In this document: positions 27,001-33,687 of the stretch, piece by piece
Layout: each line of letters opens with the position of its first letter
How positions within the stretch are numbered: position 1 is the stretch's first letter
Source: Acidobacteriota bacterium
GTDB taxonomy: Bacteria; Acidobacteriota; UBA6911; RPQK01; JAJDTT01
Assembly: GCA_965263035.1 (NCBI GenBank)
Contig: OZ253580.1
Location: forward strand, 5,152,001-5,216,000
Length of the DNA stretch: 64,000 bases
Direction: 5' to 3'
Translations under genes and position numbers: made by a program
Notes under the pieces: generated by a model
Seen by the model: only the letters and a program-made list of their open reading frames with translations
Databases searched by the model: none
Told to the model about the DNA's origin: nothing

Positions 27001-27345
27001 CTATGCTTCAACGCCGAGCCGTCCGGGTCGCTCCGAGTGCGACTCGCGAATAACGATGTGTACATCGCGCCCCAGAGCCGTCAGGAGGCGCAGAAGCCGT
27101 TCCATGGAGTACTCTCGGAAGCTGCCCCGCAGCAGGCGCGACACATCGGGTTGAGACAGCCCGAGCAGCTTTGCTGCGTCGACCTGCTTGAGGCGGCGCT
27201 CTCGAATGATCTTGTCGATCTGCGTGACCAGCTTGGCCTTGAGCAGATGCGCGTCGGCATTCGGGAGTCCCAGGTCAGCGAATATGTTTCCGCTGCCGCG
27301 TTCAATCTTCACGTTGTCGGTCTTCATCGTTTTACCCTCTGCCAA
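27001..27345 (-). CDS. XRE-family HTH antitoxin
   Basis: GSGNIFADLGL, LKQVDAAKLLGLSQPDVSRLLRG, YSMERL. Confidence 0.92.
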   Translation of the reverse strand: MAEGKTMKTDNVKIERGSGNIFADLGLPNADAHLLKAKLVTQIDKIIRERRLKQVDAAKLLGLSQPDVSRLLRGSFREYSMERLLRLLTALGRDVHIVIRESHSERPGRLGVEA

Positions 27346-27700
27346 AGTTCTCGCGGTAGTGTTGCTCCGCCGCTTTCAGCCTCCGCCTGATCAGGTCGAT
27401 CTCCGGCTTCGGAGTCGCGATGCCCTGCTTGGCCTTCTTCTGGAAGGCATGTAGCACGTAGACGGCGGACCTGAACCGGACCGTATACACGGCCCGAAAG
27501 GCGTCGCCATCATGACGCGAGACCACTTCCAGGACGTTGCTGCCCAAGCCTCTGAGCGGCTTGACGTCCCGGTGTCTGAGACCAACCTGAGCTTGATAGA
27601 GCGCATAGCCGACTACGCGTCGCACGGACTCCGGAAACGTCTTCAGGTCCGCCTTGCTGGAGCCAATCCATTCAACAGGTCTCGGCAGGTCCGCGGCCAT
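27332..27700 (-). CDS. RelE/ParE-superfamily (Gp49/HigB-like) toxin
   Basis: WIGSSKADLKTFP, FRAVYTVRF, VYVLHAFQKK, TPKPEIDLIRRRL; overlaps the antitoxin. Confidence 0.92.
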   Translation of the reverse strand: MAADLPRPVEWIGSSKADLKTFPESVRRVVGYALYQAQVGLRHRDVKPLRGLGSNVLEVVSRHDGDAFRAVYTVRFRSAVYVLHAFQKKAKQGIATPKPEIDLIRRRLKAAEQHYRENFGRG

Positions 27701-28456: not shown

Positions 28457-29163
28457 GTGCGCCCGACATGGGCTGTATCTAAGGGATGAAAGATCCCAAG
28501 GGAGGTGATGGGACCAACCCTAGCCGAACCGCAAGGCGTAGCCGCGAGGTGAAGCTGAAGGAAGCGGAAGGCAAACTGTCAATGGCCATTGAAAATTGCA
28601 CACATCGCGGGAGCCCCCGTGAAGGGAGCGGAGCGACCGCCACGGGGGCTCCCGCGGTCGGACCTGATCCCCTCATGCCTCCCTCCTTCCCGCTCCGGAT
28701 TCCTGTGCGCTGACCGCTCGGGCGGCGGTCGGATGGATCGCCCTGGAGAGCTCGGCGTGGCGGCGCAGCCGGTAGCTGTTGCCCCGGATGTTGACGATGT
28801 GGCAGCGGTGCAGGATGCGGTCCAGAAGCGCTGCCGCCATCACTTCGTCTCCCAGGATCTGGCCCCATTCCTCGAAGCCCTTGTTCGAGGTCAACACCGT
28901 CGAGGCCCGCTCGTAGCGCCGGTTCACCAGTTGGAAGAACAGAACCGCTCCGCTCTGGCCGACCGGAAGGTAGCCGATCTCATCCACCACCAGGAGCGCC
29001 GGATAGGTCAGGGTCTTGAGACGGTGGTTGAGCCGGCCCGCCGCCTTCGCTTCCTCCAAGGAGTCGATGAGGTCCACCAACGTCCCGTAGTAGACACGAC
29101 GGCCGCTCTCGGCCGCCGCGATCGCCAAGCTGATGGCCAGATGGGTCTTCCCCACTCCGGGCG

Positions 29164-29628
29164 AACCCACGACACAATGCTCACATTGCGACCTCCGTTA
29201 GAATCCATTACCCCTTTCACCCCTTAGCCGGACGAGACCTTGAACTGGCCGAGCCTCCTCGTCACGGCCAGTGTGGGGAGTGGTTCACCTGCCGGCTACC
29301 GGACAGTACTCACGCGAAGATCCCACGCTGGATGTGCCGGCCCGAAGCTGCGGCAGTGGGTCGGGTCGACGACCAGCCGCGATGCAGCGTCGGCGCCTTG
29401 CAAGAACTTCTGGACCTGATCGAGACGTTCGGGTCGAAGTCGGATTGTCAGACCACCCGGGGCAACGTTGCCCCCGGAGGACGGCATGAAGCAAAAGGAG
29501 TTCGCGTTTGCAACCCCCAACCAGCCCGAGTGGGACCAGCTACCCCCTTCGACCAGGAAGCAACTGCTGCGGCTGATGGCTCAGCTGCTGGAGCAGGCTT
29601 GGCGAGGGCAAAAGGAGGACGCCGATGA
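29164..29628 (+). CDS. Headless ORF (DUF5372/Y4bD-like); start codon supplied from 31724-31741 upon circularisation
   Basis: Stop-free frame NPRHNAHIATSVRIHYPFHPLAGRDL...KIPRWMC...ALQELLDLIE from the element boundary; track ORF 29332..29628 is its C-terminal part. Confidence 0.8.
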   Translation, partial: NPRHNAHIATSVRIHYPFHPLAGRDLELAEPPRHGQCGEWFTCRLPDSTHAKIPRWMCRPEAAAVGRVDDQPRCSVGALQELLDLIETFGSKSDCQTTRGNVAPGGRHEAKGVRVCNPQPARVGPATPFDQEATAAADGSAAGAGLARAKGGRR

Positions 29629-29644
29629 GAGGAAAGATCACTGA
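29486..29644 (+). CDS. 52-aa accessory protein upstream of the recombinase
   Basis: GGAGG RBS; MKQKEFAFATPNQPEWDQLPPSTRKQLLRLMAQLLEQAWRGQKEDADERKDH; overlaps the LSR start; below the ORF track cutoff. Confidence 0.75.
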   Translation: MKQKEFAFATPNQPEWDQLPPSTRKQLLRLMAQLLEQAWRGQKEDADERKDH

Positions 29645-31709
29645 GGATCACCTGAGACGCCAAGCCTACGTCTACGTGCGCCAGTCGAGCCTGCGGCAGG
29701 TTCGTTACCACCAGGAGAGTGGCCGGGTGCAATACCGGCTGGCGGCCAAAGCCGAAGAACTCGGATGGAACCAAGTCGAGGTGATCGACGAGGATCAGGG
29801 GCGTTCGGGGGCCACTACGGTCGATCGGGTGGGCTTTCAACGCTTGTCCGCCGAGGTCAGCCTGGGACGGTGCGGGGCCATCTTCAGTCTGGATGCCTCT
29901 CGACTGGCTCGCAACAATGCCGACTGGTACCGATTGCTGGACCTGTGCTCGCTGACGCGGACCCTGATCGTCGACAGCGAGGCCGTGTACGATCCGCGTC
30001 TCAGCAACGACCGACTGCTTCTCGGGTTGAAGGGAACGATGAGCGAGGCAGAGTTGAGCCTGCTCCGGCAGCGTGCCCAACAGGGACTGCTCAGCAAAGC
30101 GGCTCGCGGAGAACTGTACACCTCATTGCCAGTGGGGTTCGTTCTGAACCCGAACGGATGTTTGGAGAAGGATCCGGACCGCCGGGTGCAGGAAAGCATT
30201 CAGGGGGTGTTTGCTAAATTCTCCGAGACGGGCAGTGCCCGGCAGACTCTTCTGTGGTATCGGCAGGAAGGGATCCGGTTGCCCGTGAGACGACACACCG
30301 CTTGGGGTTGGGAGACGGTGTGGAAGCGGCCCGTCTACAGCAGCGTGCTGAGGGTCTTGAAGAACCCCCTGTACGCGGGGGCCTATGCTTGGGGGCGCAC
30401 CTGGACCGAGACCTACTTGAAGGACGGTCAAGCTCGCAAACGGATTCGGTCCCGGGCCCACCCGGAACAGTGGACGGTCTGGCTCAAGGAGCATCACCCG
30501 GGCTACATCGACTGGACGAGCTTTGAAGCGAATCAACGCCTCTTGGCCGACAACGCACAGATGCGAGGCAAAATGGCGAAGGGAGCCGTTCGTTCGGGAA
30601 AGAGTTTGCTGGCGGGTCTGCTGCTGTGTGGGCACTGCGGTCGCCGGCTGCACGTGGCCTACAGTGGAGTTGGGGGACGAGTCCCCCGCTACCATTGCCG
30701 AGGGGCGCGGATCAACCACGGCGTCGCGGGTTGCATCTCGTTTGGCGGACGCAGGGTCGACCAAGCCGTGGGGCGCGAGATCGTGCGAGTGGTTTCCCCA
30801 GGCGCGATCGAGGCGGCTCTGCGAGTGCAAGAGGAAGCCACCGAGCGAGACCGGTTGAAACGAGAACTCCTGGAGCGCGAACTCGAGCAGTTGCGCTACC
30901 AGGCAAGACGGGCTGAGCGACAGTACGATGCAGTCGACCCGGAGAACCGGCTGGTAGCCTCGACGCTGGAGCGGAAGTGGAACGAAGCCCTGAACAGTGT
31001 GCGCCAAGTGCAGTCCCGTCTGGAGCAGATCGGGCAGAAGCGGTCGAGTTCGCCGGGACCGCAGCGAGTGGAACTGCTCCGGCTAGCCGAGCGGTTTCCA
31101 GCGCTCTGGTCCGATGCCGTCACCGACAATCGGATCAAGAAGCGGATCGCACGCACGTTGATTGAAGAGATCATTGCGAGCGTGGATCAGGGTAGGCGGG
31201 AGGTGGAGTTGATCATCCGCTGGCGCGGGGGCAAACACACGCGGCTGCAGGTACGAAAGAACGCCACCGGTCGCCATCGCTACCGCACCGAGGAGGACGT
31301 GGTGAAGTTGGTTCGCCAGTTGGCCCGGCAGGTGAGTGACGATCAGATTGCCCGGATCCTGAACCGAATGGGCAAGAAGACGGGACGAGGGCACAGCTGG
31401 AACAAGACTCGTGTTCGCAGCTTGCGCAACTATCGGCGCATCCCAGCCTTCTCGCAACGCCCTCACGAATTCTGCAACATGCAAGAAGCGGCTTCGCAAC
31501 TGGGAATCAGCCCCAGTTCCGTACGCAAGCTGGTTGCCCGCAAACTCCTGCCAGCACGGCAGGTGGTGGCCACGGCCCCCTGGCAGATTCGGCACTCGGA
31601 CTTGGGATCTGAAGCAGTCCAACGAGCCGCCGAGGCCATTCGAAGCGGCAGAAGAGTTCCGCGAGGTACCAACGCGTCACAGTTAAGTCTCATGACATCA
31701 ACGATGTAG
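29625..31709 (+). CDS. Large serine recombinase (resolvase + recombinase + Zn ribbon + coiled coil + C-terminal HTHs)
   Basis: AYVYVRQSS catalytic motif, SRLARN, LKNPLYAGAY, LLCGHCG...C...C, C-terminal excisionase-like MQEAASQLGISPSSVRKL; AGGAGG RBS. Confidence 0.95.
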   Translation: MRGKITEDHLRRQAYVYVRQSSLRQVRYHQESGRVQYRLAAKAEELGWNQVEVIDEDQGRSGATTVDRVGFQRLSAEVSLGRCGAIFSLDASRLARNNADWYRLLDLCSLTRTLIVDSEAVYDPRLSNDRLLLGLKGTMSEAELSLLRQRAQQGLLSKAARGELYTSLPVGFVLNPNGCLEKDPDRRVQESIQGVFAKFSETGSARQTLLWYRQEGIRLPVRRHTAWGWETVWKRPVYSSVLRVLKNPLYAGAYAWGRTWTETYLKDGQARKRIRSRAHPEQWTVWLKEHHPGYIDWTSFEANQRLLADNAQMRGKMAKGAVRSGKSLLAGLLLCGHCGRRLHVAYSGVGGRVPRYHCRGARINHGVAGCISFGGRRVDQAVGREIVRVVSPGAIEAALRVQEEATERDRLKRELLERELEQLRYQARRAERQYDAVDPENRLVASTLERKWNEALNSVRQVQSRLEQIGQKRSSSPGPQRVELLRLAERFPALWSDAVTDNRIKKRIARTLIEEIIASVDQGRREVELIIRWRGGKHTRLQVRKNATGRHRYRTEEDVVKLVRQLARQVSDDQIARILNRMGKKTGRGHSWNKTRVRSLRNYRRIPAFSQRPHEFCNMQEAASQLGISPSSVRKLVARKLLPARQVVATAPWQIRHSDLGSEAVQRAAEAIRSGRRVPRGTNASQLSLMTSTM

Positions 31710-32068
31710 AAAGGTGGTGCAGTATGTCACCGGATCGGGCGGACCCAGGAAGACGATGTTTTCCCTTCGCTCCACGAAGCCCAGCTCGTGCAGCGAGTCG
31801 ATCTGCTCCCGTTTGATCGATGGCTGGAAGCTGAAGTCGAACTCCGCCAGCGTCTTGATCGCCGGCAGTCGGCTGGAACGCATGGCCGCCTCCAGCCGCC
31901 GGCTGTTGCGCAGGGCGATCTGGGCCGCCAGGAGCCGTTCGATGGCTTCCGAAGCGGTGGTCCCTCCGCCGTCCACCCCGGAGAGCACGCCGTCGAGGGC
32001 TTCCAGGGCGCCCGGCATCTTCAGATCCGCAAGCTGGGCGGCGATGCGCTCTCGGCGGGAGGGGATGT

Positions 32069-33111
32069 TCACGCCACACCTCCCGTGAGCCGGGCATACT
32101 CGGTCAAGGGACGGCGCTCGACATCGATGATCCTGGACCCGGACGGCACCGTTGCCTCGGGGCTCTCAGGGACTGGAGATGGGATGACGACAGACCGGTA
32201 AGGCCAAGACGCCAAGGGGGTTAAGATACTCACGCTCCCGCTCGAACCGGTCCACGGGCCGTTCCTTGAGCGTCCCGTGGTTCCGGACGTTGGCCTCCGC
32301 TTCCCGCCACTCCCGAGCCCGGGCGTTGAGATCGGCGTCCGACACGAAGTCTCGGCCATAGAAGAAACTCTCCCGAATGTAGCGGATCGGCCGCTCCACC
32401 TTCCCTTTCGTCTGAGCTCGATAGGGTCGGCAGGCCCGCACCCGAAAGCCGAGAGTGGCGGCTGAAGCGAACGAACTCCCGGTTCTCGATCAACCGTCCG
32501 CCCTCCTCCCGCCCGTCCCGGACGATGACCGACTTCATCTGGTCGAACAGAAGTTCCCCAGGGACGCCGCCGAAGTAGTCAAACGATGCCTCCAAGCCCC
32601 GCATCACCACCGGCATCGTCTGGCGCTCGTAGTAGCGGAACCACATCAACCGGGAGTAGCCCAGCACCACGATGAGCGCGTACCGCTTTCCCCACGGCAA
32701 CCGGAAGTCCGCGAAGTCCACGGAGGGCTGGTGGCCCGGAGCTGTCTCGAACCGCTGGACCGGCTCCTCGGGAGCCCGCGGCCGCGCTTGGCACACATAG
32801 CGCTTCACTTGACCGTAGCCGCCGCCATAGCCGGCCTTCCGCACCTCTCGGTACAGCCGCGTCGCCGTCAACTTCGGATACTCGGCCAGACGAGCATCGA
32901 TGATCGCCTTGTACGGATCCAGCTTCGACCGCCCCGGCCCTCTCGGTCCGTACTGCACCGGCTCCTCCTGGCCTCCCCGATGCAACTGTCCCTTCTGGAT
33001 CCAGTAGTAGACCGTCCGCCGGCTGACTCCCAGCTGCCGCGCGATCGCGGCCTTGCTCATTCCTTGTTCCAGATAGTGTCGCAATAGCACCCTCTTGTCG
33101 CTCCCAAACAT
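32069..33111 (-). pseudogene. istA: IS21 transposase IstA with two +1 frameshifts
   Basis: HTH SKAAIARQLGVSRRTV, RFETAPG, LLFDQMK, RAQTKGKVER; frame changes near 32452 and in the G-run 32216-32220. Confidence 0.88.
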
Positions 33112-33687
33112 AGCGTCTCCTCCTCCTGGTAGAGACGCTACGTAACAGAATCCCGCCCTCTCGGCGAACCTCTCGAGATCTTCCTTGTGGCTCCCCCCTA
33201 AGAGCCTCTTCAGGAACCAAAAGTGTGCAATATTCCATGGCCACATCTGTGCAATTTTCCATGGCCGCCAACATCTCAAGGGTGAGAGCCTTTGAGAAGT
33301 CAGCAGAGGTCATAGTAGCGAAGAAGCCGGATAATGCCGGTGGAGCGAAGGACCGAAGGAGTCGGACTGGCCCTATGGTGGACTCGTCAGCGGGATCGCA
33401 ACTACCTCCGGAAACGGGGCGGGGGGAGGCCCCTCGGACCCGGCACGGAAGGCCCAAGGGTGGAACCCGTCAAGCCGGAAGGGCGGAGATCAAGTCCCAG
33501 CGGCGGCGGAAACCGGAAAGAAAGGCCCTGTACGAGGCTCGAAAGAGCCTCGAGTGACTCCAACCGCCGGATACTGAAAACGGTACGTCCGGTGGTGTGG
33601 TCGAGTGCAGGGGCGCAATCCCCTGCACTCGACCCGATCACGCCGCCGCTCCACGCCGCCGCTCTACGTTACTTTCTTTGGAATTCT

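Follow-up and report, generated by a model that had tools for sequence, protein, structure and literature searches.

A mobile element moved by a large serine recombinase carries a small accessory gene split across its recombination site

A 64,000-nucleotide stretch of the genome of an Acidobacteriota bacterium (assembly GCA_965263035.1, contig OZ253580.1, positions 5,152,001 to 5,216,000; hereafter the window) contains a 2578-bp insertion at 29158-31741 that is an insertion sequence (IS)-like mobile element moved by a large serine recombinase (LSR). Its three genes all lie on the plus strand: ORF1, an open reading frame (ORF) related to DUF5372 proteins; ORF2, which encodes a 52-aa protein; and the LSR gene itself. 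Comparison with homologous elements shows, at the level of sequence, that the recombination site lies within the coding sequence of ORF1, which becomes whole only once the two ends of the element are joined, an arrangement conserved across phyla. We consider it probable that ORF1 encodes a partner of the LSR that is made only from joined ends and biases the LSR toward re-integration. The directionality of serine integrases is a central open problem, both in nature and for genome-engineering tools, and this family may offer a built-in topological switch: a small, predicted integrase binder that could be made only from the excised form.

ORF1 is complete only when the ends are joined

The element lies antisense within the Walker A codons of one interrupted IS21 helper gene, istB, on the minus strand. 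A sequence-only reading of the window had bounded it by two copies of CGGGCG, and these cores lie at 29158-29163 (attL) and 31736-31741 (attR), both on the plus strand. Logan contigs of two public runs carry the corresponding empty site: position 29157 joins 31736, exactly 2578 bases are skipped, and six letters fit either side. The joint has a depth of 189 in run X3 (193 at its side) and 15 in run X7 (24 at its side). Because contigs of two public runs carry this precise empty site, the boundaries are no guess. A comparison of the window copy with L002 narrows the crossover to a GG at 29160-29161 and 31738-31739; L002 is an essentially identical copy at another site, where it interrupts a different ATPase-like gene, again antisense and in Walker A codons. 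The letters thus indicate that two imperfectly symmetric sites cross over at a central dinucleotide and that the target is not duplicated, as expected of an LSR.

The left end opens directly into the body of ORF1 (29164-29628, plus strand; 154 codons plus stop), which has no start codon of its own. As the sequence-only reading had it, this ORF is headless: frame 1 is open from 29134, after a TGA at 29131, to the stop at 29626-29628, and contains no ATG, GTG or TTG before 29332. We considered Met 29332 as the start and rejected it, since copies L003 and L004, each 92% identical, have ATT (Ile) at this position and the methionine is therefore not a conserved start. The region upstream of 29332, where a lack of purifying selection had been named as evidence against a split gene, has a coding pattern.

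The missing start lies at the other end. The right arm (P, 31710-31739, plus strand) begins directly after the LSR stop codon (TAG, 31707-31709) with a Shine-Dalgarno (SD)-like AAAGGTGG at 31710-31717, followed by the motif GCAGTATG at 31719-31726, whose last three letters are an ATG (31724-31726), and by an 11-nt spacer (31727-31737) that leads to the crossover GG. In the chromosome the frame of this ATG ends after 30 codons. The left arm (P', 29162-29180, plus strand) consists of an 11-nt spacer and the motif CACAATGC, which reads His-Asn-Ala in the ORF1 frame. Joining the ends over the core produces one in-frame ORF of 160 aa, just as had been proposed, in which the right arm contributes the ribosome-binding site, the ATG and the first 4.5 codons, and the remainder begins at the first base of the left end. 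The proposed symmetry of the junction around its central GG is also there, the two arms being complementary at 13 of 19 positions. The ATG is in frame with the left CAY codon because the site geometry sets it 3+11+2+11 = 27 nt upstream of that codon. Since integrated ORF1 lacks a start, the complete 160-aa gene exists only where ends are joined, in an excised circle or a head-to-tail copy.

The same architecture recurs across phyla

We asked how general this arrangement is by scanning for LSR homologues in one genome per species, which yielded 80 loci from Acidobacteriota, Planctomycetota, Alpha-, Beta- and Gammaproteobacteria, Verrucomicrobiota, Cyanobacteria, Chloroflexota and others. A hidden Markov model built from the first recognisable ORF1 relatives and run on these loci showed that in 65 of the 80 the LSR is directly preceded by a DUF5372-like ORF. 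Among the other 15 are contigs that end just upstream of the LSR (L021, L031, L041). Both arms were placed by symmetry in 29 distinct elements from several phyla, with LSRs 35–88% identical. Automatic motif placement had put left motifs wrongly (L048, L029, L053, the L080 type, L023, L026), and these were re-placed by arm symmetry.

The two ends follow a common geometry. Right ends comprise an SD, GCANTATG, 11 nt and the crossover dinucleotide; left ends comprise the same dinucleotide, 11 nt and CAYANTGC in the ORF1 frame. At right ends GCANTATG, the mirror of the left motif, is preceded by GAGGTG, AAGGTG or GGAG, and the LSR stop lies a few bases before. At left ends the peptide [RK]-H-[NT]-[AT]-H, conserved ahead of the ORF1 domain, is at the DNA level the left arm of the recombinase site.

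Circularising the elements in silico, a check that the sequence-only reading had itself proposed, places the right-end start in frame with the left ORF in all 21 elements (of the 29) with both ends placed. The start is an ATG within the right-arm motif in 20 and an ATG three codons upstream in one. Left and right dinucleotides are equal in 21 of the 29 elements (GG, GT, TC, TA, AA, CG or GA), and the left motif of these 21 lies 45, 48, 51 or 57 nt from the invariant His-Pro codons, always a multiple of three. The fitted elements span 2540–3235 bp. At the upper end is a cyanobacterial element of 3235 bp with 13 copies, whose LSR is just 35% identical and whose right end lies 651 nt past the LSR; the similarity among its copies stops precisely at the predicted GG at either end. 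High copy number recurs among the relatives, with at least 13 copies in one cyanobacterium and in one alphaproteobacterium.

A second, independent set came from a metagenome scan with P0013, a database relative of ORF1, which gave 49 distinct left ends and 22 contigs that reach the right end. The motif is in frame at 48 of the 49 left ends, and 21 of the 22 right ends carry the ATG motif. The dinucleotides of these 21 contigs are equal in 13.

In a separate observation on the crossover site, the near-identical elements L096-L162 bear different central dinucleotides (GT, GG, CT, TT, CA).

Start signals at the right end

The in-frame ATG could in principle be a by-product of site symmetry. The ATG and its purine stretch would then be a recombinase binding site and the 3' end of the LSR gene, and ORF1, if made, would come from a non-canonical start or rare read-in while integrated. 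Several features fit this account: the ATG sits inside a right-arm motif that mirrors the left CAYANTGC, left-arm codons are invariant at the DNA level, and the frame relation is geometric once the motif is given. We nevertheless judge it very unlikely. The right-arm triplet is ATG in 20 of 21 elements, whereas by our own count only about 12 of the 21 mirrored left triplets are CAT, the others being CAC, CAG, CGC, CGT and AAG. In elements with an altered motif triplet (AAG in L026/27, ATA in L017), an in-frame ATG replaces it exactly three codons upstream; L030, L054, L025, L061 and L065 have both ATGs, in frame. An SD match of at least 5 nt, sought 4–18 nt upstream, is found at half of the right ends (10 of 20) and at a single one of the 20 mirrored left arms; in random windows from the same loci the rate is about 5.5%.

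The left end offers no start of a common kind that is conserved. None of the distinct upstream contexts examined has an ATG within the left end, those of L047 and L056 lying in the flank. A conserved internal start, which would have spoken against the split, is likewise not what the metagenome elements have: their in-frame GTG and TTG triplets are synonymous or variable codons, as in one tally of GTG 18, GTT 14, GTC 7, GTA 4 and GCG 5. Host translation cannot read into ORF1 either, because insertion is mostly antisense to the target gene.

Codon usage across the left end separates two kinds of constraint. In the metagenome subfamily codons -18 to -11 are invariant including their third positions (48/48), which points to constraint on the DNA by the recombinase site; from codon -10 onwards third positions vary, which points to coding constraint on ORF1. 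A protein alignment of 31 members also supports coding. This leaves little room for ORF1 as a functionless, decaying remnant that is open merely through high G+C, an idea to which the poorly conserved, low-confidence tail after about residue 105 and the G+C-rich window lend some colour. Across phyla its domain is conserved, His-Pro is invariant and third positions vary synonymously; cyanobacterial elements keep the ORF open as well, and a search found 5630 related cluster representatives at E<=0.001. We regard a remnant as hardly credible.

Joined forms in public data

A protein search with the headless ORF retrieved the exact 160-aa joined protein, P0001, from a public protein collection. It consists of Met and five residues followed by a sequence identical to the left-end ORF, and comes from a public assembly in which a single 95,240-bp contig encodes it. 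P0001 indicates that joined DNA exists somewhere in public data, though the junction was not seen directly.

A profile search of 1.84 billion cluster representatives returned the 5630 ORF1 relatives just mentioned, 2396 of them at 1e-10, and we examined the best 150. Among these 150, the P0013 N-terminus MKQARAKQRHNAG is what a codon-by-codon reading gives for the L096/L099/L131 type when its right arm is joined to its left arm over GG, and P0006, P0093 and P0138 have a Met nine residues before the conserved His. P0111 begins with MGTMTWDQ, one residue off the reading of the L030 right end, with its two in-frame ATGs and spacer. The contigs of P0013 and P0093 measure 2719 and 2729 bp, and P0013-type elements 2591–2603 bp. 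These sizes are as expected of a circular contig with overlap.

The complete gene might instead be used from head-to-tail tandems in the chromosome and not from free circles. P0001 sits on a contig far longer than a circle, and so does P0138, at 38,550 bp. Yet no tandem appears in 175 loci or in the complete 6.2-Mb genome, where an intact joined site, searched for with the motif pattern, is absent too, and the P0013 and P0093 contigs are about one element long. Use from tandems is in our view quite unlikely.

Loci that seemed to place an LSR before ORF1 were also inspected. The upstream LSR of L096 and L129 belongs to another LSR module, and both were rejected as junctions. Of 80 metagenome loci, 78 are integrated copies, since no LSR lies upstream of the ORF; the contig of P0013 itself was not among the results of the metagenome scan.

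ORF1 is predicted to contact the LSR where directionality factors bind

The sequence-only reading had likened ORF1 to DUF5372 and Y4bD proteins, Y4bD belonging to plasmid pNGR234a. The likeness to DUF5372 holds for the family: 12 of 31 aligned relatives match DUF5372 at E<=0.001 (best 7.8e-09), and one database relative is labelled DUF5372 (PF17342) by its source. The window copy itself matches weakly (E 0.0036; 17.7 bits against a cut-off of 25), and P0001 matches no family at E<=0.001.

An AlphaFold model of ORF1, built with the 31 aligned relatives, has a confident small barrel of four to five strands followed by helices over residues ~17-100, with a disordered basic tail. In this model, numbered as in the 160-aa joined form, pLDDT exceeds 90 for 57 residues, and the tail past residue ~105 is poorly conserved and modelled with low confidence. 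We drew no function from the fold because its structural matches are generic.

Modelling the LSR together with ORF1 residues 1-105 gave a complex with a score of 0.68, compared with 0.00 for the best of three controls. Of 80 solved complexes, 58 reach the mark set for this score, as do 2 of 110 mismatched pairs. Agreement between runs is 83% of contacts or more, and the partner has a pLDDT of at least 65. The modelled interface comprises LSR residues 334-341, with zinc-ribbon cysteines, 385-402, 480-517 and 530-540; on ORF1 it involves the invariant His-Pro and helix 74-95. The ORF1 protein is thus predicted to sit on the zinc ribbon and coiled-coil base of the LSR, the surface where directionality factors bind. 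In SPbeta integrase the binding site of the recombination directionality factor (RDF) comprises DBD2 and the inter-hinge base of the coiled coil (PMC11722253).

The domain may also partner other recombinases, as ORF1 relatives H27 and H32, on two Bradyrhizobium plasmids, adjoin genes annotated as tyrosine-type or site-specific integrases.

A partner made from the excised form

We propose the following sequence of events. On the circle the order would be LSR stop, SD and ATG, ORF1, ORF2, LSR start, and as the ORF1 stop TGA overlaps the LSR ATG (ATGA at 29625-29628) the genes would form a closed loop. A transcript that passes the end of the LSR gene would cross the joint and so encode full-length ORF1. 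Its protein would bind the LSR at the zinc-ribbon domain and coiled-coil base, mark the excised state, and bias the enzyme to re-integration, against staying out or re-excising, the function we prefer. Integration would split ORF1 again, the signal would decay and the system would be reset. The sequence-only reading had called the element a recombination-state switch and had named several functions for its protein, from promoting re-integration or blocking re-excision to choosing targets or maintaining the circle. That the gene is complete only when joined is borne out; among the functions, the predicted LSR contact favours directionality.

The main competing account gives ORF1 the opposite role. 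As a classical excision-promoting RDF, made by a rare first circle or an incoming copy, it would set off a burst of excision of the other copies, and integration would resume on dilution. The predicted binding surface is the one that RDFs use, and the element is multi-copy in its own genome (four copies) and in relatives. Against this, a circle that does not replicate would risk being lost if it blocked its own integration, and the excision factor might just as well be ORF2, which is complete in both states. We think this account unlikely.

A wider picture can be drawn only tentatively, and as a whole it is less likely than not. The element would sense its own topology: the attP half-site would double as a translation start, the partner on the RDF surface would act against excision or for integration until the gene is split again, perhaps by displacing ORF2 as the excision factor, the genes would form a closed-loop operon, and the family would consist of hyperparasites that home into the most conserved codons of other mobile elements' genes.

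Several observations weigh against a re-integration factor made from joined ends, in addition to the absence of an intact joined site noted above. Some concern the comparative set. The list of 29 elements was picked by eye, which is a weak point, and eight of them could not be fitted (L063, L086, L077, L092, L059, L056, L057, L090). Five of the eight have a truncated LSR and the contigs of L086 and L077 start at the left end; L063 has an intact LSR and a right-end ATG motif, and lacks a matching left arm. The frame follows from geometry once the ATG is in the motif, so that the elements test a fixed ORF frame, the ATG and the SD, and not the 1 in 3 expected by chance on the sequence-only reading. 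Left and right dinucleotides are unequal in 8 of the 21 metagenome contigs and also differ in L019 and L032, which may reflect chimeric assembly of repeats or a tolerated crossover mismatch. In L003 one extra nucleotide in the rejoined ends breaks the frame, in a copy whose LSR is broken too (longest frame 529 aa). The relatives P0058, P0101 and P0132 start with a Met just before the first strand, so that some members of the wider DUF5372 family may carry a start of their own.

Others concern expression, junctions and function. The scan of 28900-32000 for promoter-like (sigma-70-like) sites and terminators found none, for a host whose promoter type may differ. In Logan contigs of runs X1, X2, X3 and X7 covering 28700-32200, the junction check suggested by the sequence-only reading found the empty-site joint and no joint going back around a circle, in a type of data that would not show rare circles; the computed joint is likewise absent from the window and from the genome. 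The joined forms P0001, P0013 and P0111 may derive from tandem copies or from an assembler's walk through a repeat. Foldseek returned generic SH3/Tudor/KOW-like barrels for ORF1, with a best E of 0.1 and no significant match. Binding of ORF1 to the LSR is the prediction of a model. A factor at the RDF site that is made only after excision reverses the classical RDF logic, which makes the direction of its effect a guess.

Relation to known systems

State-dependent expression at joined ends is itself known. What differs here is that the split parts are the SD and start codon of an accessory gene, embedded in a serine-recombinase half-site. In Tn4451/Tn4453 the circle junction formed by TnpX reportedly assembles a promoter for the recombinase gene (Lyras and Rood, 2000). 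As in Tn4451, an LSR moves the transposon, joined ends create an expression signal, and a transposition protein would be made preferentially after excision. Unlike in Tn4451, where a promoter for the recombinase is formed, here an accessory coding sequence is split, the LSR is intact in both states, and there is no cargo.

The integrases of SSV1-type fuselloviruses and Mx8 intP have attP within the int gene. They resemble our element in that the attachment site lies inside coding sequence of the element and integration splits or alters a gene. They differ in that the tyrosine recombinase gene itself is split; here the LSR (29625-31709) is whole in the integrated state, and just the start and 4.5 codons of another gene are separated. 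In IS911, IS30, IS21 tandems and IS110/IS1111, abutted ends form a junction promoter that boosts the next step; these circles belong to DDE/DEDD transposases and join split promoters, in contrast to the split ORF seen here. XisF is an LSR with small helpers, XisH and XisI. The present LSR likewise has small accessory proteins of the same element, and is not an XisF equivalog, its match to the NCBIfam XisF model being weak (68.8 bits against a cut-off of 375); Pfam and NCBIfam scans matched neither ORF1 nor ORF2 to the XisH or XisI families.

ICEclc and ICEKp1 have promoters that act on int only in the excised state (PMC13023037). As there, circularisation places a 3'-end signal before a gene of the 5' end. 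Those elements use a tyrosine integrase and control integrase transcription, whereas ours is a serine-recombinase mini-element in which the partner's translation start is at stake. Like RDFs of the SPbeta type (PMC11722253), ORF1 is a small protein predicted on DBD2 and the coiled-coil base. Unlike known RDFs, which are made from the prophage for excision, it could be made only after excision, and no relation in sequence or fold is shown.

In the literature searched we found no paper that names DUF5372, nothing on LSR insertion in the Walker A of istB/IS21 or in IS66 transposase genes, and nothing on a start codon formed at a serine-recombinase circle junction. The arrangement gives DUF5372, with its 5630 cluster representatives, a first functional context. 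Placing a start codon and an integrase half-site on the same bases constrains how such sites can evolve. The split start also explains why annotation pipelines miss ORF1; one annotated integrated copy that we inspected lists no gene upstream of the LSR, in a gene table that is incomplete.

The recombinase and ORF2

The LSR (694 aa, 29625-31709, plus strand) has the Pfam domains Resolvase (PF00239, E 4.7e-19, residues 14-163), Recombinase (PF07508, 2.3e-17), Zn_ribbon_recom (PF13408, 9.5e-09) and HTH_17, and matches the PHROGs integrase family phrog_95 at 2.1e-57. Residue S21 is invariant across 20 sequences, as are cysteines 335, 338, 358 and 370. Homologues occur in 543 plasmid records, mostly rhizobial.

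ORF2 (29486-29644, plus strand) encodes an acidic protein, has its own SD, GGAGGA, at 29476-29481, and is complete in both states. It overlaps the tail of ORF1 in another frame and extends into the start of the LSR gene. Reading by eye gave an ORF2-like ORF, with an acidic tail and the pattern (L/F)..W..LP...R...LL..LL, for about 20 of 25 listed elements, and within the ORF1/ORF2 overlap it is the ORF2 frame that has the highest number of synonymous changes. ORF2 has no family match in Pfam, NCBIfam or PHROGs, nor ORF1 in NCBIfam or PHROGs. ORF2 may be an excision factor or a second accessory factor. An Rfam scan of 28600-32300 gave no match.

Insertion sites, copies and neighbouring features

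The flanks of the element are the two halves of istB, both on the minus strand. The left flank (28673-29163) is the C-terminal piece, from the Walker A GK[ST] codons onwards, and matches Pfam IstB_IS21 at E 2.4e-55 (28673-29170, profile positions 98–235 of 238). The right flank (31736-32072) is the N-terminal piece, up to the Walker A GPP codons, with an E of 4.3e-19 (31698-32072, profile positions 2–101). Rejoined by script, the flanks give a single open istB frame with Walker A spanning the joint. The two IstB_IS21 halves and an ORF with rve and helix-turn-helix (HTH) matches at 32230-33279 support membership in IS21. The istA gene of the host IS21 (minus strand, 32166-33279) is in two overlapping frames, 32230-33279 and 32166-32441, so this IS21 copy is probably frameshifted besides being interrupted.

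The genome holds four copies of the element: that of the window, L002, L003 and L004. L003 (G000:C1:1029465-1032090) is a decayed copy in another IstB-like gene, and L004 (C1:5830882-5832870) a decayed, truncated one that ends near window-equivalent 31088. Run X2 has a loose end at the same place where L004 stops.

Rejoined flanks open a host frame in all 21 elements. Ten elements lie in the Walker A of IstB-like ATPases (..GP|PGVGK[ST]..) and three in ..RKNALFAG|.., with an IS66 family transposase annotated beside a relative. Two further sites read ..|YN..R.H, and one each reads ..|PTIADR.. (reverse transcriptase-like), ..HML|RHS and ..SP|YRDGTTH. L030 is inserted in sense orientation, in IPGIG|P. 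The motifs beyond IstB and IS66 look like those of rve, IS91 and IS110 transposases, tyrosine recombinases and group II intron reverse transcriptases. This choice of targets suggests that elements living as parasites of other elements form a widespread layer.

Two different ORF1-LSR modules stand in tandem, ~45-70 nt apart, in L026 (2504-7727), L060 (2592-2915), L096 and L129. In L026 and L060 the piece between the modules is a fragment of an IS66-like transposase gene. The tandems suggest distinct subfamilies with neighbouring sites in one target gene.

Past ~5096, L092 carries a ~37-nt unit three times with spacers, like a short CRISPR-type array, downstream of its truncated LSR and where the right end of the element is expected. 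In the window itself, two small ORFs, of 122 aa and 114 aa, overlap on the minus strand of 27001-27700; the latter has an HTH-like sequence, and by sequence the two look like a toxin-antitoxin pair.

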